NCBI GenBank assembly: GCA_963799775.1 | Contig: CAWCYD010000003.1 | Coordinates: forward strand, 1,280,001-1,344,000 | Source: an uncultured archaeon | GTDB lineage: Archaea > Thermoproteota > Nitrososphaeria > Nitrososphaerales > Gagatemarchaeaceae | Reading direction: 5' to 3' | Length of the DNA: 64,000 nt | Shown: positions 1 through 8,836 of the stretch, piece by piece | How positions within the stretch are numbered: position 1 is the stretch's first letter | How the letters are laid out: each line of letters opens with the position of its first letter | Program-made: the position numbers and the translations under genes | Notes under the pieces: generated by a model | Told to the model about the DNA's origin: nothing | The model's input: only the letters and a program-made list of their open reading frames with translations | Databases searched by the model: none

Positions 1-1
1 C

Positions 2-415
2 GATAGGGAGAGCTACTACGCGACCTTGGGCCTCCCTCCGGATGCCACCTTTGAACAGGTGAAGTCACGCTTCAGGGAGCTCAATGAAGCGTACCTCAAG
101 ATACTCGAGCTGTCACGAAGCAGCGCAAAGGCCCGTGCGCCCGGTCGACCCGCTCAAGCCGATAACGGCGCTGTTCGGCCCAGTCCGCATCCAGACACAA
201 ATCCAAAGCAAGGGGCCTCGCCTCCGCAAGAGACGCGCACGGACCCGATAGCCAAGATCAAGGCAAGGCTCGCAAAGGGAGAGATCCAGAAAGCTCAGTT
301 TGAGAGGCTGGCAAAGGAACGCTACGACTATCTCAAGAACAAACCCTTCAGCGAGTTGACGGAGTCCGAGTTTGAGGAGAGGCTCCATGGGTTTGAGGGG
401 TTGAAGTTCCTATGA
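2..415 (+). CDS. J-domain-like protein (5'-partial), lacks the HPD loop; C-terminal SHOCT-like helix pair
   Basis: Frame open from base 2: DRESYYATLGLPPDATFEQVKSRFRELNEAYLKIL matches DnaJ helices I, II and III; C-terminal KARLAKGEIQKAQFE is SHOCT-like. Confidence 0.6.
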   Translation, partial: DRESYYATLGLPPDATFEQVKSRFRELNEAYLKILELSRSSAKARAPGRPAQADNGAVRPSPHPDTNPKQGASPPQETRTDPIAKIKARLAKGEIQKAQFERLAKERYDYLKNKPFSELTESEFEERLHGFEGLKFL

Positions 416-599
416 CCTCGGTCGCGCAGCCCGGCGAAGCGTCGGAGCCGGCATGGAGCTCTACGAATGGCTCTATGACAAGGTGGAGAACAAGTGGGTC
501 AAGATAACTGCGAAGAACATCCAAGGGAGGAGATGCGGCCGCTGTGGGTGCCCTTGCCCCTGCGCGTGCCCGGATTGTCTGCATCAATACTGCTCATAG
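412..599 (+). CDS. Small Cys-rich peptide, copy A (intact ORF 453..599, 48 aa; probable true start ATG 412 with a 1-nt indel)
   Basis: MELYEWLYDKVENKWVKITAKNIQGRRCGRCGCPCPCACPDCLHQYCS; paralog at 4274..4477; ATGA overlap with the upstream stop. Confidence 0.8.
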
Positions 600-878
600 A
601 ATTCTGTTCTCCCTCTCTAGATTCCTGCTTGCCGGCTCGGTAGTCATCTTATCATCCTCTGCGCGCCTTCCCTAATGTGACGCGCTTGGGCTTCAGAGCA
701 GTGGCGCTTGGGTGCTGTCTAATCTTCGTTTGGTTTGGCGTGATATGCATTCGGTTCCAAACGGCAACTCGACAGAGCCATTTCTTGGTAAGCCTAAAAT
801 CAATCCTAGCTGAGAGACGCATCCCTCGCACAAGCGAGAAAGGCACTCGAACGGTAAGATTGTCGTGAGAGTATGAAT

Positions 879-1112
879 CTAGGTAGAATGTGCTACTCCT
901 GCCCTACCCTTGGCTTTTTGACGCAACCTGACATAGAACAGTGTGAAAAACGCCCAACCAAAGGCGAGCGCTGGGACCGCGCGCTCGAGGCTTAGCGAGC
1001 CGAGAACAAAACCGGGTAAACTAACCCCTAAGTAGAGGAGCATCATCAAAACAATGAACTTTACGTATCCTTTAGACGCTATCCAATCCCTGAATCCCGA
1101 GAGCGGGTCCAA
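879..1112 (-). CDS. Small 2-TM membrane protein, candidate immunity protein
   Basis: 77 aa, two hydrophobic segments, basic tail; starts 6 nt after the stop of the upstream gene. Confidence 0.6.
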   Translation of the reverse strand: MDPLSGFRDWIASKGYVKFIVLMMLLYLGVSLPGFVLGSLSLERAVPALAFGWAFFTLFYVRLRQKAKGRAGVAHST

Positions 1113-1118
1113 GAGATA

Positions 1119-1965
1119 TCACCCATATCCTAATGCTTCACAGGCAGCCGCGCAAGCTGCATCAATGACATCGTATTCCTCTATAACGAAGACTATAACC
1201 ACGGCTGCTAGAATACAGACACCAAATGTGGAGATGATGCAGGCCACGAATACCACAGCTATGGTCACGATCACCACAATCTCGCACACAAGGTCACAAT
1301 CCTGATCCATATCCACCGAAATCGTGCCGCTTACGTTGAGATTCGCAGTTGAACGGGGCAGCATGGCTCCCATTTTTAGAAAGGAGGCCGCCATCAGCGC
1401 GTAGTACGAGCCGAGCTGTCTGATTGTAGAGTTTTGTGAGGCAATGTCTTGGGCAGCAACTATGCCAAGCCCGGCCGCGTTTCCTAGGAGCTGGTTGGTG
1501 AGGGTGGACGTGTAGTTCAAGACGAAGACGTCTCCCAGCTTGAGGTCTCTACCTTTGGGAATGATATTCGCTCCGAGGACTGCCAAGTATCGACTGCTGC
1601 TTGCATTCCGCGCGAGGCTCTCCAGAATCGTGACCGTGTAGGTATTCGCGACCTCAGTGTACTGGAGATAGACAATGCTCGTTCCTTTGGTAGTGCCGAC
1701 CGATGCCATCAGCGTCGATTCTCCTCGACTCAGCGTTGTATTTGAAAAACCTTCCAAGCTTGCCTTTCCGGAAGGGATGCTCGGCATAGTCTGCGGCATA
1801 GAGAAGGGCTTTTCTGAGTTCAAATGAAATGGCGAGTTCATTTCGTACACGTTGCGGATTTGAATAGGCACTTGATTAGTTGCGCCGGAAGCGGGTGTTA
1901 CCGGGTAAGATAAAGACAACAAACAAACCGGCCAGAAAGATTCCGCCTAACTCGCGTATCCTCAA
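1119..1965 (-). CDS. Secreted halocin-C8-like bacteriocin precursor (frameshift near 1905)
   Basis: TTG at 1965 plus removal of one base gives the signal peptide MRIRELGGIFLAGLFVVFILPVTPASGA; C-terminal ~60 aa is hydrophobic with 6 Cys and ends ACAAACEALGYG. Confidence 0.55.
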
Positions 1966-2392
1966 CGCTTGGGAAAAAGGCGTGAGATAACGATATATGC
2001 GTTCCGTCAAGAATTTCGGTGATTCTTTTGGTTTTCTCCCCAATTTCCGGCTGACCTATGCCATAACCTATGGGACACGCTCCCTAGCATGCTCTACGTC
2101 GAGGACAGGTTCGCGAACTATGTCCCGTTCCTTGAGCTTGTCGCCCTCAGGTGACGAGCAAGGGAGAAGAGGCTACCGCGAAGATGCAAGGCTATGTCCT
2201 GAATCTACAGGATATGCTGGGGAAGACCTACGATGCAAGAGACGTCACGTATGACCTCAAGGTCGACCTCGAAGAAATAATCTGGTGAGGGCTGAGCTAG
2301 CGCGAGACCGCGCCGTTGGCTTCGTAATCTTCCTGCTAATCGGCACGTTTGTGACCTCTTCGTGCTCTACGGACTTTCGCGGGTGTAGGAGC

Positions 2393-3361
2393 CTAGGGAC
2401 TCGCGAGGGTCAGCGACGTCACGCTCGTCGTTTCGCCGAGGGTGGTACCCTGCTCGCTAATCTGCGTCTGCTCGTATAGGATCATCGTTAGGCCCGTCCC
2501 CTGGACCGTCCCTATGCCCTCGACGAGGTTGCTCAGCGTGGTCCCGCAGTAGGTCAAGGGAAGGGACTTCAGCGTGTAGTAGGTCATCTTCACCTGCGTC
2601 GGCCCGAGGGAGACGGTCGTCGAGTTGAGGACCGCGACGTTCGGGTCAGACACGACCCCGCTCGTGTAGGTGCTCGCGTGGAACAGAATCAAGAAGGACG
2701 AGACGTCGGCCTGACCCATGGCCTCTGCCGAGGCTCCGGTGGAGTTGCCCAGGACCGGCGAGCTCACGCTCGTGGCCGTCCCGTTGGGGGCGAACATGTC
2801 GACTGTGGAGACGTTGAACCCGGTGATGCTCGTCGTGAAGTTCACCTCGTAGTACTCGAGGGAGCCTATCGTGGGCCGTCCGATAATCTGGTAGGACGAG
2901 CTCGTCGCCAAGCCCATAGTCCCGACGATGTTAGATGTCACGGTCATCTGGGAGAAATTCCCGAAGAGCTCGGCCAAAGTCGCGTTTCCGGGGCCCTCGT
3001 TGTAGAGGCCGGTCAGGTTGCCCACCAAAGCGCTGACGGTGGAGTTGAGCTGGGCCATGCTTTCCGTGCTGTTGAACAGGCAGGGAATGGAGGTGGTCGA
3101 AGACGAGCTCGTGCTGGTCGTAATCGGGATCGCGCTGCTCGGCGAGCTCGTCGAGCTCGTTGAGGTAGCGGTGGTCGACATCGAAGAGGTGGAAATGGCC
3201 TCGGTGCTAGAGGAAGACGTGCTTCCGCTGGAAGAAGGCGCCTGTGATAGCGAGAGGACGGCCGCCGCTCCGACGGCAGAGACCCCGATTACCGCTACGA
3301 CGACAAGGGCCAAGACCCTTGGGACGCCTGCGCGTCTGGCCAAACGGGAAGAGTCCGCCAA
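2393..3361 (-). CDS. Membrane-anchored/secreted Ser/Thr-rich surface protein
   Basis: N-terminal TM/signal, S/T linker, beta-rich domain with many N-x-S/T sequons. Confidence 0.75.
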   Translation of the reverse strand: MADSSRLARRAGVPRVLALVVVAVIGVSAVGAAAVLSLSQAPSSSGSTSSSSTEAISTSSMSTTATSTSSTSSPSSAIPITTSTSSSSTTSIPCLFNSTESMAQLNSTVSALVGNLTGLYNEGPGNATLAELFGNFSQMTVTSNIVGTMGLATSSSYQIIGRPTIGSLEYYEVNFTTSITGFNVSTVDMFAPNGTATSVSSPVLGNSTGASAEAMGQADVSSFLILFHASTYTSGVVSDPNVAVLNSTTVSLGPTQVKMTYYTLKSLPLTYCGTTLSNLVEGIGTVQGTGLTMILYEQTQISEQGTTLGETTSVTSLTLASP

Positions 3362-3644
3362 GTGCCGGAGTTCAACAGGCGCCGAGCGAACTTATGGGTT
3401 GTGAAGGCCGAATCAATATTCCAGCGGCCAGTCGATGTCTCCAAGTCCAGAGAATGGGAAGGAGCCCAGGGAGAAGATTGTTCCCATATCATAATATCCA
3501 AAACAGACACTTTTGGTCACCTTGCTGAGAGGCCGACCTCCGCATATCCCCATTTTGCCTTTGCCGCAGCGCTAGCGGCAGTCCTCCTAGTCCGAGCGAG
3601 GCAAGTCCCTCGAGGCCGCTAACCGCGAATCATAGACGAGCTCG

Positions 3645-3773
3645 TTAAGACTTGTCGTTCGCCCCCCGTCTTCTACCCCTGACTGCCCGGTCTACCATCT
3701 TCTCGAAAGCCGCGTCGTCATTGAGAAGCCTGTCCAGCTTCTGTAACTCCTTTTTTGTCAGTGGCTTGCTCAA
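3645..3773 (-). CDS. Small helical protein (42 aa), possible paralog of 5311..5472
   Basis: MSKPLTKKELQKLDRLLNDDAAFEKMVDRAVRGRRRGANDKS, translated by hand (below ORF-track cutoff). Confidence 0.45.
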   Translation of the reverse strand: MSKPLTKKELQKLDRLLNDDAAFEKMVDRAVRGRRRGANDKS

Positions 3774-3889
3774 GGACTTTGCCTCTGGGTCGTCGAAATT
3801 GGAGGTGAGGCCGTCTAATGACTGCCGATTTGATTGCAGTCTTTATACCGAGCTCCGCATCTCGAATGGATTGCAGTTGCGAACCTTCG

Positions 3890-4144
3890 CTAGATCGGCC
3901 CCTTGTGCGCCTTGAGGACCACAGAGCTTGCGGTGCTCCTGATTCCTTTGACCTTCATGATCTTGTGTTCGAGGAGCTCCCTGAAGTCCTCGAGGGTGTC
4001 CACAGAGAATAGCGTCAGGAGGTCGAACTCTCCGGTGACCTCGTAAAGGTGCACAAGGTCTTCGAGCTTGGATAGGGCTACGACTACGTCATCCATCTCA
4101 GGCTTCTCCACAAAGATTTCTACGAAGACCAGGAGACGGGGCAA
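3890..4144 (-). CDS. Stand-alone Lrp/AsnC ligand-binding (RAM) domain protein
   Basis: LYEVTGEFDLL...IMKVKGIRSTASSVVL motif; no HTH. Confidence 0.85.
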   Translation of the reverse strand: MPRLLVFVEIFVEKPEMDDVVVALSKLEDLVHLYEVTGEFDLLTLFSVDTLEDFRELLEHKIMKVKGIRSTASSVVLKAHKGPI

Positions 4145-4273
4145 CCCTAAACGTCATGCATCGGGGGTCACTTGGTGATATAACTTCCGCGGGGGAGAAG
4201 TACACATGGCGCCACCCTCCAGGCCGTGGCCTGGTGGTCTCATGCCTCTTGTGACGAGGACGCTCGAAGATAG

Positions 4274-4477
4274 ATGGAGGGATCTCTAGAGGTGTCAGCC
4301 TCCCAGCCTCCCGAGGGGTCTGAGAAGAACGAGGAGCCATACGAATGGGCCTACGACCAGGCTCAGAACAAGTGGGTCAAGATAACGGCGAAGAACAGCC
4401 AGGGCAGACGGTGTGGTCGTTGCGGGTGTAGTTGTCCCTGCACGTGCGCGGATTGCCTCTTCCAGTGCTGCTCGTAA
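4274..4477 (+). CDS. Small Cys-rich peptide, copy B (67 aa)
   Basis: YEWAYDQAQNKWVKITAKNSQGRRCGRCGCSCPCTCADCLFQCCS; 9 Cys. Confidence 0.8.
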   Translation: MEGSLEVSASQPPEGSEKNEEPYEWAYDQAQNKWVKITAKNSQGRRCGRCGCSCPCTCADCLFQCCS

Positions 4478-4526
4478 CTCCGTTGCGCCCATTTCGCGAC
4501 CCAGGAAGGGCTCCACGCTGGACGCT

Positions 4527-4838
4527 TTAGCTGGTGAGAGTGAGCTCTATCTTTACGTCCTCGGGAATCGAAAGCTTCGTTATCTGCCTCATGGCCCTGT
4601 CGTTCGGCTCCACATAGATGAGCCTTCTGTGAATCCTGAGTTGCCAGTGGTCGAACGTGTGGGTACCCTCGCCCGTTGGGGCTTTCCTAGTGGTAATCTT
4701 CAGCGTCTTGGTTGGCAGAGGCTGCGGGCCCACGCTCTTGACGCCCGCCTTGTCCGCGATATCCTTAATCTCCCAGGCAAGCCTGCCCAGCTCATTAAGG
4801 TTGGAGCTGGTCAGCTTGATTCTCGCATACTGTGGCAT
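4527..4838 (-). CDS. rps10: 30S ribosomal protein S10 (uS10), archaeal type
   Basis: ARIKLTS...GPQPLPTK.LKITTRKAP.GEGT.TFDHWQLRIHRRLI...IPEDVKIE. Confidence 0.95.
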   Translation of the reverse strand: MPQYARIKLTSSNLNELGRLAWEIKDIADKAGVKSVGPQPLPTKTLKITTRKAPTGEGTHTFDHWQLRIHRRLIYVEPNDRAMRQITKLSIPEDVKIELTLTS

Positions 4839-4964
4839 TGTCTTTGGGACTCGCGTCTAGGCTTGCTACTTAGGCCTTTGCCAAATCGCCCGCGAGATCC
4901 TGCAACGAAGGAATACGGACGCCCCATGCCTCGATCGGAGCATCTCCTGGCTAAGGCCGTTGGT

Positions 4965-5153
4965 TCATCTTGAAGGAGGGTTCAGGCAACGCACTTCCTT
5001 GCTGGTGACAAGCACCCGGTCGGTCGTGACCGTCTCTGTCACTGTGAAGGACACCATCCTGACGAAGCGCAACCCCGAGATGTCCCGCTCCGCGAAAGCG
5101 ACCTGCACCTTCTCGACGGTGAGCTTGAGCTCCACCATCTTGTCCCGCATCAA
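4965..5153 (-). CDS. Hypothetical protein
   Basis: 62-aa ORF, plausible composition, no motif recognised. Confidence 0.35.
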   Translation of the reverse strand: MMRDKMVELKLTVEKVQVAFAERDISGLRFVRMVSFTVTETVTTDRVLVTSKEVRCLNPPSR

Positions 5154-5310
5154 CCCTCGAATGCCCCAATAACGGCCTAATGGCGGCCACAGACAAGAAA
5201 TCTATACCAGAGGCTCAGGCCCCGCGTCAGCCTGCGGCCAAGGACCCAGGTTGCGAGAGCTATGCCGCCATGGCCGCTTAAATTCAACGACGCACTGTCT
5301 GGCCATTTGG

Positions 5311-5472
5311 ATGACCTCCTCGCTTACCGAAAGAGACCGGAAAGAGTTGGAAGAGATTCTCGCCGACCCCGTGAAGAGGGCAGAGCTAGCCAACAGGGCG
5401 ATTGATGCGTGGGTTCTTCAGGGGCTTCCAAAGTCGAGACGATCCTCAAAGAACTCGAAGAAACGCTCCTGA
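5311..5472 (+). CDS. Small helical protein with basic tail (53 aa)
   Basis: MTSSLTERDRKELEEILADPVKRAELANRAI...; CTTAAA box ~30 nt upstream. Confidence 0.5.
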   Translation: MTSSLTERDRKELEEILADPVKRAELANRAIDAWVLQGLPKSRRSSKNSKKRS

Positions 5473-5735
5473 CGCGCATTCCTCTCGCCTACAAGAGAAG
5501 CCCGGAGCGATTCTTCAGAGAACTCTCGACGCTTGAGATTGTGTTAGGGATTAAAGAGAAATTGAGGCACAGTTCGCCGCAGTGAGCAGGTCGCCCTGCC
5601 CACAAACGGAGCGAGCAGACAATGCTTATGGCAGGCTCGAAACTTCCCGCGCAGACGAAAGACTTGCAGCGCTCTAGCGTCGTCCCAAAGAAGAAGAAGC
5701 CTCCGCACTAGGCATTACGAGGAACCGACCCAGCC

Positions 5736-6296
5736 TCATTCGTGGTATTTCTTCTCGCCCGCTCGGATCGCCACCTTGAGCCAGTTCTCCTGCGGCGGGA
5801 GGGGGCAGACGAATCCTTCGTTATAGGCGCAGTAGGGGTTGTAGGCGTAGTTGAAGTCCACGAGGTATCTGTCGTCGTGCTGGACCTCCATGTCGAGATA
5901 CCGCCCCGACCCGTAGGTCTCCTTCCCTGAGGTCGCGTCCCTGAAGGGGACGAAGAGGTTGCGGTCTTCGCGCTCGGCGGACTGGTAGGCTAGGAGCTGG
6001 AATGGCGGGCCGTTGAGAGTTAGGTCGAAGCGGCCCACCTTGTTGAAGAGCTGGCGCGTCCCTTTGCTCGTGGTCATCATGAGGCCCCGCTCTGGAGACC
6101 TGCTGAGCTTCGTGTCGAAGCGAAAGGCAGGGTCCGGCTCGAAGTAGTTGAGGCCCACAAACTGACTGGAGTGCGCGAACGGCGAGTCGGGGCCGTTCCG
6201 GAAGAATTCGTTCTTCTGCTCCCTGAACCTGAGAAGGGCTCGCCTCCAAGTCTCGAGCTCATCAGGCTGCATCGTGGGTCTCATGAGAGGAGTCAA
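5736..6296 (-). CDS. DUF1684 family protein
   Basis: FVPFRDATSGKETYGSGRYL...DFNYAYNPYCAYN...CPLPP.EN.L...IRAGEK. Confidence 0.92.
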   Translation of the reverse strand: MTPLMRPTMQPDELETWRRALLRFREQKNEFFRNGPDSPFAHSSQFVGLNYFEPDPAFRFDTKLSRSPERGLMMTTSKGTRQLFNKVGRFDLTLNGPPFQLLAYQSAEREDRNLFVPFRDATSGKETYGSGRYLDMEVQHDDRYLVDFNYAYNPYCAYNEGFVCPLPPQENWLKVAIRAGEKKYHE

Positions 6297-6361
6297 GGAT
6301 AACCTTTCTCAGTGGTCCGCCACCAATGCTTAATTCGAGGCGTCAAAGGCCCGCATGTTGA

Positions 6362-6703
6362 TTGGTGGAAGAGAGAGTGGCTGAATCAACGAGAAGGACG
6401 ACGGCAATCAAGTACAGACGGCTCGACGACCTCGTGAAGTTTGTGAGCATGACCCCGCAGCCTTTTCTGAACCACATCGAGCGGGCTGGGAAGCATCTCT
6501 ACTTCTTCGTGCTGCCGTTCTCGGGCGGGCTCTTGGTCTCCTACCTCTCGGCTGACAAGAAGATAGAGGGCGAGTATATCACGATCAACAGGATGTCGGG
6601 ACGCTTCTCGGCCTCGAGCAAGCCTAGCTTCGACGCCCAGTCTCTAGACATGCCGATCCTTGAGGTCGAGGCCACCGACCTCTTGGACGCCATGACGTCC
6701 TAA
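6362..6703 (+). CDS. Conserved hypothetical archaeal protein
   Basis: 113-aa globular ORF with upstream CTTAAT box; resembles small TACK-type hypothetical proteins. Confidence 0.6.
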   Translation: MVEERVAESTRRTTAIKYRRLDDLVKFVSMTPQPFLNHIERAGKHLYFFVLPFSGGLLVSYLSADKKIEGEYITINRMSGRFSASSKPSFDAQSLDMPILEVEATDLLDAMTS

Positions 6704-7017
6704 GCTCAGGCGCCGCCGAAATCGACGAACTCGGCAAGCGGATGGACGTGACTCAACGTCTCGCCGTGGTCGAGGAGCAGCTCAAGGAGCTGCGGACGAG
6801 AGCCTAGTCTATCCAGATGGAACTCAGGATGGGCAGCTGCCCGTCGTCAGGAGAATGGACCCGGGACTTGCCATTTTCCGACTCTTTCTTGACCGCCAAG
6901 TCAAGCGACAAGCCTTTGGCCACCGGCGCATGCCGGTATTTAGGCTCCAGGAACATTCTTCTAGAATCATCGTGCGATGACTCGTTCCAAAACCTATTAT
7001 CGGACTAGCCCGGGAGC

Positions 7018-7377
7018 ATGGTAGGCCCGATGGACTCTCTCACAAAGCTCAAACTGACTCTCGCCATAATGGCGAGCAGAGTCCGACCCAGAAAGAGACG
7101 TGTTGATTTCGGGGCGCCCAGTCCTCACAGCCAGCGTTGGGACGAGAGGGAGAGGACGGAGTCCATGCGCGCGCAGCAGGTCGGCGCGCAAGGCTCGCGT
7201 CGTGCCCTCAACATGAGGGTCTTGGCGCTCATCGGCACCATGTTTGCTATCTCGCTCTTGGCCGACCTCCTCCTGCCCCCTATCATGGGCACCGCAGTGA
7301 GCTTGGCACTCTTGGGCGGCGCGCTCGCGTACATTTTGTATGTGAGGCGCAAGCGCTCTTCATATCGGCCGATGTAG
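7018..7377 (+). CDS. Small 2-TM membrane protein (start may be 7165)
   Basis: Two hydrophobic helices followed by RRKR. Confidence 0.55.
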   Translation: MVGPMDSLTKLKLTLAIMASRVRPRKRRVDFGAPSPHSQRWDERERTESMRAQQVGAQGSRRALNMRVLALIGTMFAISLLADLLLPPIMGTAVSLALLGGALAYILYVRRKRSSYRPM

Positions 7378-7398
7378 CAGCCCGCGAAAAATAGCCCG

Positions 7399-7650
7399 TT
7401 ACTTTCCGAGCGCCTTGCCAAGCAGGGCGTAGAATTCCTCCGCAGCCTCTAAAGAGAGGTTGAACCCCTGCTTCGTGGGCCCGCTGTAGCGGTTCCCCTT
7501 CACCCACGCTCGCATCGCGACCACTTCGCGCTTGTCCCTCTTCGTCACTCCCCGCTGGAACTTCACGACGGTTGCCTCGCCGAGCTTGAGCTCCCCGACG
7601 TCGCTCACCTGCTCCCAGTATTGTTGCCCGCCACCCGTCTCTTCTGACAT
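7399..7650 (-). CDS. PC4/YdbC-like ssDNA-binding protein
   Basis: VAMRAW...PTKQGFNLS..A.EF..LL parallels the PC4 motif VDIRE.W...PT.KGI.L. Confidence 0.65.
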   Translation of the reverse strand: MSEETGGGQQYWEQVSDVGELKLGEATVVKFQRGVTKRDKREVVAMRAWVKGNRYSGPTKQGFNLSLEAAEEFYALLGKALGK

Positions 7651-7777
7651 CTCGCTAACCTGCCATTGCTTACCGCCCTCTGCCTTAAGTCGCTATCTCT
7701 CGGCTGATGCATCAGAAGACGGCTAGGCTGTGATTGGGGAACTTTATCTGCGGCCCAAACGCGGCGCGCATCGTCAC

Positions 7778-8836
7778 ATGAGCCCCGACGAAGCGCTGAA
7801 CGAGAAGGTCGCAAAGAAGATCCTGACAGAGACCCTCCGGATGAAGAGGGGCGAGACTCTGACGATAGAGACCTGGAACAACGGTCTCGCATTCGCCCAG
7901 AGGCTCGCGCTTGAGGCGAAGCGGATGGGCGTCATTCCCGTGATCGTTTTCGAGGACGAGCAGGGCTACGTCGACGGCGTCAAGGTCACGCCGAAAGAGA
8001 TACTGGGGACGATGGGCAAGCAAGAGTACGGCCTGCTGTCAGGATCTGACGCTTACGTCTTCATCCCCGGGCCGCCCATCGGCGCATACTCCCCCCGCCT
8101 CACCAAACAGGAGCACTCTGACTCGACAAAATACAATACCTCGTGGTACGAGGCAGCGGAGAAGGCGAAGCTGAGGGGGGCAAGGCTCCCCTGGGGCTAC
8201 GTGGGAAAGGAATACGCGAAGCTCTATTCGAAGGGGCCCGAGGAGTTCGCACGGGCGCAGCTAAAGGCGGCCCTCGCAGACTTTTCGCAGCTTTCGGCCA
8301 CAGGCAGAGCCGTTGGGAAGGTCTTGCTCGACGGGACAAAGGCGACCCTCATCTCTCCAGGAGCGAGACTGGAGCTCGTGCTACAAGGCGACGCGGAGCT
8401 GGAGGATGGGATGGTCGACCAGGCCGATGTTCTGGGCGGGTACAACATGACCTTCGTTCCCCCAGGCTATTTCATGAAGCAGGTCGATACGACCTCCGCC
8501 AACGGAAGGGTCAAGCTCTCGCCGTCGATGACCCGGCTCGGTCTCCTTCGAGATGCCGAGCTGGAGTTCGACGGGGGAAGGCTCACGAGGTGGAAGAGCG
8601 AGAGTGCGGGCAAGGTGCTTTCGCAGCTCGTAGAGGCCGTGCCTTACGAGAATCGAACCTTGTCGTCGATAATGGTGGGGCTCAATCCCTTGATGAAGTA
8701 TGACTTTGGTCAAGACAGGATGGTCTGGGGCTCCTTGAACCTCGCTGGGTTCGGGTTCGCCGGGGTCGTGAGGAAGGGCACCCTTAGGGCGGGAGACAGG
8801 ATCATCGTCGACAAGGGCAGCCTCTCCTTCCCGTAG
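7778..8836 (+). CDS. M29 (aminopeptidase T)-like protein, metal ligands apparently lost
   Basis: KILTETLRMKRGETLTI N-terminus, VPPG, LEFDGG and GLNP motifs. Confidence 0.7.
   Translation: MSPDEALNEKVAKKILTETLRMKRGETLTIETWNNGLAFAQRLALEAKRMGVIPVIVFEDEQGYVDGVKVTPKEILGTMGKQEYGLLSGSDAYVFIPGPPIGAYSPRLTKQEHSDSTKYNTSWYEAAEKAKLRGARLPWGYVGKEYAKLYSKGPEEFARAQLKAALADFSQLSATGRAVGKVLLDGTKATLISPGARLELVLQGDAELEDGMVDQADVLGGYNMTFVPPGYFMKQVDTTSANGRVKLSPSMTRLGLLRDAELEFDGGRLTRWKSESAGKVLSQLVEAVPYENRTLSSIMVGLNPLMKYDFGQDRMVWGSLNLAGFGFAGVVRKGTLRAGDRIIVDKGSLSFP

Follow-up and report, generated by a model that had tools for sequence, protein, structure and literature searches.

A candidate metallothionein-like micro-protein family in Gagatemarchaeaceae and other Nitrososphaeria

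Bacterial metallothioneins of the BmtA/SmtA type are small cytoplasmic proteins that combine a multi-metal thiolate cluster with a beta-hairpin and aromatic residues, and the BmtA type is an acknowledged exception to the rule that metallothioneins contain few or no aromatics (PMC3323870, in the portion of the article available). Here we describe a family of Cys-rich micro-proteins, two of them encoded in a 64,000-nucleotide (nt) stretch of contig CAWCYD010000003.1 from an uncultured archaeon of the Gagatemarchaeaceae (the whole stretch is referred to as the window), that resembles these proteins in its beta-hairpin, its conserved aromatics and a cluster that is predicted to hold several metals. 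SmtA has nine Cys ligands. The archaeal family has no sequence similarity to the bacterial proteins, lacks conserved His ligands and a predicted helix, and is denser in Cys, with four CxC motifs around an invariant CPC.

In vertebrate metallothioneins the beta domain has the stoichiometry M3Cys9 and the alpha domain M4Cys11. The family shares CxC, CxxC and CC motifs with these domains, and its Cys counts of 9 (29 of the 44 sequences in our alignment, numbered throughout as in copy B below) and 11 (9 of 44) equal those of the classical beta and alpha clusters. However, the two groups are non-homologous: the archaeal proteins have a hairpin, four to five aromatics and conserved non-Cys residues, and their module spans 20 residues compared to about 30 in a vertebrate domain. 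The haloarchaeal C(P)XCG micro-proteins, such as HVO_0758 and Brz, are likewise archaeal, shorter than 70 amino acids (aa) and Cys-dependent, as far as the available parts of PMC10716476 and PMC2253796 describe them. Their C(P)XCG motifs, two (or four) in number, are spaced apart and bind one Zn each, whereas the present family, from Nitrososphaeria, has 9-11 contiguous Cys with a single CxxCG and so lacks the pair of motifs that forms a Zn(Cys)4 site. Finally, SCIFF and ranthipeptide precursors are similar in length (~45-65 aa) and in their Cys-rich C-terminus. The family differs from them in having no adjacent or co-occurring radical-SAM/SPASM gene and no NCBIfam match, and in an inverted pattern of conservation.

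Gene copies, selection and distribution

The initial annotation, made from the letters of the window alone, had described two paralogous Cys-rich open reading frames (ORFs) with 8 and 9 Cys and had called for a search for more. Both were found where it placed them, and the search yielded a third paralog outside the window. All three belong to G000, the genome that holds the window.

453..599, plus strand: copy A, 48 aa from ATG453, with the hairpin and an 8-Cys module (ORF list, BLASTP)
4274..4477, plus strand: copy B, 67 aa from ATG4274, with 9 Cys (ORF list, family alignments)
G000:C3:1277298-1277468, equivalent to L002:1483..1653: copy C, 56 aa, with 9 Cys, 2.5 kb upstream of the window start (genome-wide search)

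Copies A and B are real paralogs, identical at 36 of 47 residues (BLASTP, E 4e-27), and in both every Cys lies within the last 21 residues. Copy B is composed of an acidic tail, the hairpin YEWAYDQAQNKWVKIT, the linker AKNSQGRR and the 9-Cys module CGRCGCSCPCTCADCLFQCC, followed by S. Masses are 5.6, 7.4 and 6.2 kDa for copies A, B and C; Cys makes up 13.4-16.7% of the residues overall, with 8-9 Cys among the final 20. Copies B and C appear intact.

The codon differences that first pointed to selection on the peptide are present in the DNA alignment. Five of the eight Cys codons common to copies A and B (C47, C50, C52, C54 and C61) differ as TGC versus TGT, and nearby Gly, Arg and Leu codons are also synonymously different. 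Over the 45-codon core, the two copies differ at 19 synonymous and 13 non-synonymous positions; dS, the synonymous divergence, is saturated, and the ratio of non-synonymous to synonymous divergence (dN/dS) is 0.04 (Nei-Gojobori). We computed dN/dS, as had been proposed, for a set of 15 genes comprising the three G000 copies and 12 orthologs from congeners. The median in the annotated frame was 0.107 and the maximum 0.36 (70 of 105 pairs evaluable, the others saturated). By contrast, the +2 frame gave 1.6 and the reverse frame 2.06, indicating strong purifying selection on the peptide in the annotated frame only.

No Pfam-A family matched copies A and B at E <= 1 (hmmscan), none was found in NCBIfam at the same threshold, and searches of PHROGs and PADLOC with the family returned nothing. 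Seventeen distant members likewise had no Pfam or NCBIfam family, save for two chance matches to Pfam DUFs. The suggestion of a new family thus holds: it is real, under selection and without a Pfam or NCBIfam match. A search of 5.8 billion proteins returned 9 close homologs and, with a wider profile, 30, all hypothetical; the only organism names among the 30 were Nitrososphaerales and Nitrososphaeraceae archaeon. HMMER against 1.84 billion representatives gave 28 matches at E <= 1e-3. Twenty of these are small proteins (59-151 aa) that have the same architecture, except for the truncated P0032, and the other eight are large proteins that cover only the hairpin part of the profile; no HMMER match was a fused form bearing the Cys module.

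Within the genus, probably Ca. Gagatemarchaeum, the gene is present in 13 of 22 other genomes, in one copy each. Fourteen genomes from the family's other genera and 24 from the order's other families all lacked it, and 400 further Nitrososphaeria genomes contained two credible matches, in G247 and G405. A match in G177 (E 8.6e-4), which covers 26 residues of a 305-aa frame, is probably spurious. The DNA pattern CGCxCPCxC gave the same distribution and one additional match, a chance one in G256 within a transposase-like ORF. The family also occurs in metagenomes, where contigs were scanned with a degenerate DNA pattern, while genome contigs were scanned with the alignment. No relative was found among the at least 600 pattern matches listed for viral contigs.

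The 44 aligned members span the Gagatemarchaeum type and a divergent clade in which a single member is named, a metagenome-assembled genome (MAG) of the Nitrososphaeraceae. A maximum-likelihood tree places the genus-type sequences in one clade, with support of 97/98. The G000 copies, taken as a trio, were united in 0% of 200 bootstrap trees, and copy A groups with orthologs of other genomes in a subclade supported at 95/92. Because the copies never group together, and consistent with saturated dS, the G000 paralogs are old, with most genomes retaining only one lineage. The relatives include Ca. Gagatemarchaeum stordalenia and other MAGs of Thaumarchaeota from bog, palsa and acid soil. The genus is described as non-ammonia-oxidising, inhabiting acidic topsoil and prone to gene duplication, and relatives live in an acid podzol at pH 4.2 (PMC10640624, in the parts available). 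A search for AmoA in G000 found no match, which is weak evidence given that the search control also matched nowhere.

Two other kinds of small ORF came up in the metagenome scan. Marine contigs (L054, L073, L074, L083, L085, L104, L107, L115, L116 and others) contain ORFs of 30-50 aa, possible genes, that have only a CxxCGCxCPCxCxxC-type module and lack the hairpin; neither Pfam nor NCBIfam has a match for them, and they do not come from the sampled Nitrososphaeria genomes. Mini-ORFs beginning 'MSICSECGC...' (L063:676..798, L066:1430..1552 and L117:2193..2315) lie inside ORFs of 345-437 aa, in another frame of the same strand, and are probably frame shadows rather than genes.

Architecture of the hairpin and the cysteine module

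The N-terminal tail is variable and acidic, with a net charge of -3 to -5; its 20 residues cannot be aligned and AlphaFold2 assigns them a predicted local distance difference test score (pLDDT) of ~50; the tail is probably disordered. The core that follows has a net charge of +3. It begins with the hairpin motif Y/F-E-W-x-aromatic-D-...-K-W-V-K-I-T (YEWxYDxxxNKWVKIT), with E24 and T38 invariant and K36 retained in 41 of the 44 sequences. The T..N..GR linker comes next, with N41 and R45 invariant, S42 in 38 and G44 in 42. The core ends with the module C47-x-x-C50-G-C52-x-C54-P55-C56-x-C58-x-x-C61-x-x-x-C65-C66 (CxxCxCxCPCxCxxCxxxCC), of which seven Cys and P55 are invariant and C52 and C65 are each present in 43 of 44. 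Each copy has four or five aromatic residues, and His occurs only at variable positions.

The number of Cys in the module is 9 in 29 sequences, 10 in five, 11 in nine and 8 in copy A only. The additional Cys occupy position 49, position 60 or both: both in nine sequences, C60 alone in five and C49 alone in one. Position 60 is Asp in 29 rows and Cys in 14, and this alternation suggests that it is a ligand site. Sequences with C49 or C60 belong mostly to one clade of the tree, so few evolutionary events may underlie them. The first CxxC forms a CxxCG knuckle (C47-G51) in 42 of 44 rows. After the second (C58-C61) comes L, K or R in place of G, and five more Cys lie between and after the two.

An aromatic beta-hairpin had been postulated from the sequence, and AlphaFold2 predicted it in both runs, with strands at 23-28 and 33-38 and a hairpin pLDDT of ~78-83. 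The run with 20 sequences had a mean pLDDT of 59.6. With 44 sequences the mean was 68.1, the means of successive 10-residue blocks were 53, 49, 78, 83, 76, 73 and 65, and no helix was predicted. In the Cys module, pLDDT was 54-61 with 20 sequences and 65-76 with 44, an increase that would be expected of a fold that requires metal. Foldseek against the PDB had a best E of 1.2, VIA-align gave no match at Z >= 2 among 48,161 chains, and a PDB sequence search yielded nothing significant (best E 0.26, a C1 domain). The best ESM Atlas score, 0.79, is a lead only.

The initial annotation went on to call the hairpin a docking module, which is speculation: the motif aromatic-E-W-x-aromatic-D-(3-4 residues)-K-W-x-K-I-T recurs in unrelated folds, among them the autonomous aromatic hairpins of Kelch blade strands, the first hairpin of WWE and the C-terminal hairpin of protein G B1, the last of which we take the family hairpin to resemble. 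Five of the eight large HMMER matches were inspected (P0018, P0020 and P0026 were outside the inspection). P0014, P0031 and P0033 have Kelch repeats, with Pfam Kelch matches in P0014 and P0033, and P0028 and P0035 have WWE-like repeats. Kelch ancestry was considered and dropped: hhalign assigned a probability of 6% over 25 columns, copies A and B have no Pfam Kelch match, G000 has no Kelch_4, and the family has a single hairpin only. The similarity to Kelch and WWE is one of motif only and is likely convergence.

A proposed metal-thiolate cluster and its alternatives

The nine conserved Cys within 20 residues of a small protein point to thiolate-bound metals; on reading the sequences by eye, we saw no N-terminal hydrophobic stretch or membrane segment. 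Metal-thiolate chemistry is plausible on the invariant Cys pattern, and a bridged cluster accounts for the Cys density and the 9/11 variation better than separate Zn(Cys)4 fingers would. Copies A, B and C are below the 10 kDa that bounds metallothioneins and have their high Cys content and arrangement of CxC, CxxC and CC. From the density, the 9/11 variation and the BmtA/SmtA-like hairpin, we rank first a stand-alone, cytoplasmic, multi-metal-binding protein of metallothionein-like type, at a probability of roughly 45%. In such a protein of ~5.6-7.4 kDa, the C-terminal 20 residues would bind several metal ions through thiolates. The cluster would probably be compact, of M(II)3Cys9 type or, where there are 11 Cys, of M4Cys11 type, with Cu(I)-thiolate as the alternative. 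The pre-formed aromatic hairpin and the T..N..GR linker would stabilise the cluster by packing against it, and the protein would act as a metal buffer or store in Thaumarchaeota of acid soil and peat, where metals may be more available. We infer metal binding, stoichiometry, metal identity and the buffering role from sequence.

Clustering of ORFs within +/-1.5 kb at 16 loci and +/-8 kb in 12 contexts revealed no conserved neighbour besides the gene itself, showing that it is independent of any conserved operon. We scanned 120 neighbour proteins from 11 contexts against Pfam (+/-3.5 kb, E <= 1e-4, leaving out L037 and the Cys genes). The matches were to unrelated housekeeping genes (among them GNAT, NUDIX, topoisomerase IB, PPDK, MFS, FolD/PurN, PIN, DUF6659 and S10), and about half of the neighbours have no Pfam match at all. 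The check originally proposed, for radical-SAM/SPASM enzymes as opposed to metal transporters beside the gene, found neither class in these contexts.

Several observations weigh against a metallothionein. E24, T38, N41, R45 and the hairpin are kept more strictly than is usual in metallothioneins, and this conservation fits a specific recognition surface at least equally well. The four to five aromatics exceed the few or none of the classical definition, and no Pfam metallothionein family, the prokaryotic one included, matched at E <= 1. The coupling of Cys 49 and 60 may derive from one ancestral event in one clade. Distribution is patchy, at 13 of 22 congeners, none of the 14 genomes from other genera and two of the 400 of the class. 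None of the 120 neighbour proteins matched a metal-transporter or metal-sensor family; metallothionein genes are frequently unlinked to metal-homeostasis genes.

The family is new; should it prove to be a metallothionein, it would add a new structural variant to a functional class already known. Archaeal metallothioneins have hardly been characterised: we found no paper for 'archaeal metallothionein', none on a Cys-rich small protein in ammonia-oxidizing archaea and, judging by titles and the openings of abstracts, none on such a protein among papers that mention both metallothionein and Thaumarchaeota. The accessible text of the Gagatemarchaeaceae genomics paper (PMC10640624), supplements aside, mentions neither cysteine nor zinc. 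In its most ambitious form, which we advance only tentatively, the proposal is that Thaumarchaeota, and in effect Archaea as a whole, have here their first metallothionein family. It would be of a new structural type, with an autonomously folding, Trp-rich hairpin that caps an ultra-dense 20-residue thiolate cluster and with 9- and 11-Cys versions that mirror M3S9 and M4S11, and it would buffer Zn or Cu in acid-soil non-ammonia-oxidisers and a few ammonia oxidisers. Thaumarchaeota depend strongly on copper and inhabit metal-rich acid soils, and a dedicated thiolate-cluster protein, if real, would therefore bear on their metal economy. The folded core of ~45 residues would rank among the smallest known hairpin-plus-cluster domains, and for its small size would appeal to structural and bioinorganic work and to protein design. 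If the metals are only structural, the family would be a new archaeal micro-protein recognition module instead.

That last possibility, a structural zinc-cluster adaptor or regulatory micro-protein, comes close behind, since the non-Cys residues are so unusually strictly conserved, and we consider it unlikely though worth serious thought. Two or three Zn would build a rigid knob, and the hairpin and T..N..GR surface would bind a protein or nucleic-acid partner. The invariance of E24, T38, N41 and R45 and the retention of K36 and G44 in at least 90% of the 44 rows, across deep divergence, are in keeping with this reading, as are the basic core beside an acidic tail and the C47-G51 knuckle. There is also precedent in 43 Haloferax micro-proteins that have two C(P)XCG motifs and regulatory roles (PMC10716476 and PMC2253796, in the parts available). 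However, 9-11 Cys per 20 residues is far above what mononuclear zinc fingers need, neither Foldseek nor VIA-align matched a zinc-finger fold, and there is no conserved adjacent partner gene. In copy C, L016 and L018 the family gene does directly follow that of a small Zn-ribbon membrane protein, but full-length orthologs of this protein occur in genomes that lack the Cys gene (G018 and G022) and it is non-adjacent in G007. We regard this link as lineage-specific synteny only.

An iron-sulfur (Fe-S) or redox-active thiol mini-protein, with Cys that either hold an Fe-S cluster or switch between the thiol and disulfide states, is a good deal less probable. The high Cys density and the rubredoxin-like CxxCG knuckle would suit it, and the weakest PDB sequence matches include a 4Fe-4S binding protein at a non-significant E of 9.1. 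Nevertheless, the module does not have the ferredoxin-type CxxCxxCxxxCP spacing, no Pfam Fe-S family matched at E <= 1, and PDB sequence and fold searches returned nothing significant.

The initial annotation had offered, as its alternative to a metallothionein, the precursor of a ribosomally synthesised and post-translationally modified peptide (RiPP) of the ranthipeptide or sactipeptide kind, modified by an enzyme encoded elsewhere. We considered it with SCIFF-like precursors included and with the Cys cross-linked by that maturase. While its new selected family and its hairpin stand, this part of its interpretation fares badly. The ORF is small with a Cys-rich C-terminus, and SPASM-domain genes are present in 5 of 22 congeners. 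Yet radical-SAM, SPASM, YcaO and lanthipeptide-enzyme families matched none of the 120 neighbours, about half of which, as noted, match no Pfam family. G000 has no SPASM match, and across the 23 genomes SPASM does not co-occur with the gene (3 of 13 congeners that have it versus 2 of 9 that do not). No NCBIfam precursor model matched at E <= 1. The expected conserved leader is in fact the variable part, while the Cys core and the hairpin are nearly invariant. With no Pfam-recognisable maturase nearby and no co-occurrence of SPASM, we judge a RiPP precursor to be very improbable. Lastly, opposite-strand ORFs (348..587 and 4295..4516) overlap the copies and are open in 7 of 16 loci, but the frame-specific dN/dS, and an annotated frame kept open in ~45 distinct homologs, refute the negligible possibility that the genes are chance ORFs or shadows of genes on the other strand, and the opposite-strand ORFs are therefore the shadows.

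Start codons, promoters and neighbouring genes

The initial annotation had noted that the frame opened by ATG412, upstream of copy A, resembles the N-terminus of copy B. In the DNA alignment, copy A has a 1-nt gap just before ATG453, at ~451/452, relative to seven other family genes. ATG412 is the counterpart of the start codon used in the family and overlaps the stop codon of the upstream ORF 2..415 (ATGA). The peptide of this frame matches the in-frame N-terminus of P0001. By the gap and this match, ATG412 is the ancestral start.

412..452, plus strand: frame-shifted remnant of the ancestral N-terminal tail of copy A, MTSVAQPGEASEPA (DNA alignment, P0001 N-terminus)
4263..4270, plus strand: TATA-like box AAGATAGA, ~20-25 nt upstream of GTG4289, resembling the ortholog boxes ATTATAGACTTAATGC and GATAGACTTA

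Copy A is alone among the 44 aligned members in having Tyr at C65 and Ile at S42 (1 of 44 each). It may be a paralog in decay, its start shifted to a new ATG, or in part an assembly error; G000 is in three contigs and has a marker-gene completeness of only 81.67%. A second apparent frameshift in the region affects the L002 paralog of the small ORF 4965..5153, which is seemingly split between two frames (L002:1559..1969 and 1663..1794, both minus strand). These could be pseudogenes or assembly indel errors.

GTG4289 of copy B aligns with the ATG of orthologs that begin 'MSTSQP', and for this reason the real product is probably 62 aa long, starting at GTG4289. The box AAGATAGA is a possible candidate promoter for a leaderless or short-leader copy B transcript. 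Among the orthologs, a 16-nt box, ATTATAGACTTAATGC, is conserved 35-50 nt before the start in L006, L007, L008, L009 and L015, with variants in L011 and L013, and CCCAATAGT is found at about -30 in L014 and L017. The conserved box resembles an archaeal TATA element, and its conservation upstream of orthologs suggests that the gene is probably an independent transcription unit. The ATTATAGACTTAATGC box lies in otherwise unalignable upstream DNA, with conservation that reaches beyond the TATA element itself, and it might additionally hold a regulator site.

The genes that surround the copies in G000 include the following.

2..415, plus strand: upstream ORF that begins before the window, with J-domain-like and SHOCT-like matches, both below cut-off
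4965..5153, minus strand: small ORF, 67% identical to its L002 counterpart (tblastn)
5251..5472 and 5409..5585, plus strand: overlapping ORFs, each 51% identical to its L002 counterpart (tblastn)

ORF 2..415 matches DnaJ at E 3.2e-4 (21.2 bits versus a cut-off of 27.8), over helices I-II only and with no HPD seen, and SHOCT at E 2.2e-3, below the Pfam cut-off. It was once translationally coupled to copy A, and a paralog with 62% identity lies 330 nt downstream of copy C in L002. A functional link to this J-like/SHOCT-like neighbour was rejected because the adjacency occurs in G000 only. The ORFs within 4965..5585 have no match in Pfam, PHROGs or PADLOC. The three G000 copies sit in an old, rearranged segmental duplication, of which the copy C side is L002:1663..2938, and none of the duplicated ORFs (J-like, minus-strand or overlapping pair) is beside the Cys gene in other genomes. 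Copy C is 17 nt downstream of the 107-aa Zn-ribbon and transmembrane protein (L002:1142..1465). The N-terminal zinc-ribbon motif of that protein, CPKCGK..SESHY.RHL..CG, recurs throughout the genus, each of whose 23 genomes has 1-6 small ORFs that carry it.

Between copies A and B lie two Ser/Thr-rich ORFs on the minus strand (1119..1922 and 2393..3361; 267 and 322 aa) that contain hydrophobic segments and have no Pfam, PHROGs or PADLOC match; they are possible surface or membrane proteins. Scans for Rfam families and tRNAs over 1..8000 found nothing. Copy B is flanked by two minus-strand genes: 3890..4144, which is divergent from it and encodes an 84-aa stand-alone Lrp/AsnC ligand-binding (RAM) domain protein, and the convergent S10 gene at 4527..4838. 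A TTATAT box lies upstream of the RAM-domain gene, at ~4172-4184, and S10 is ~2 kb from the Cys gene in L038 too.

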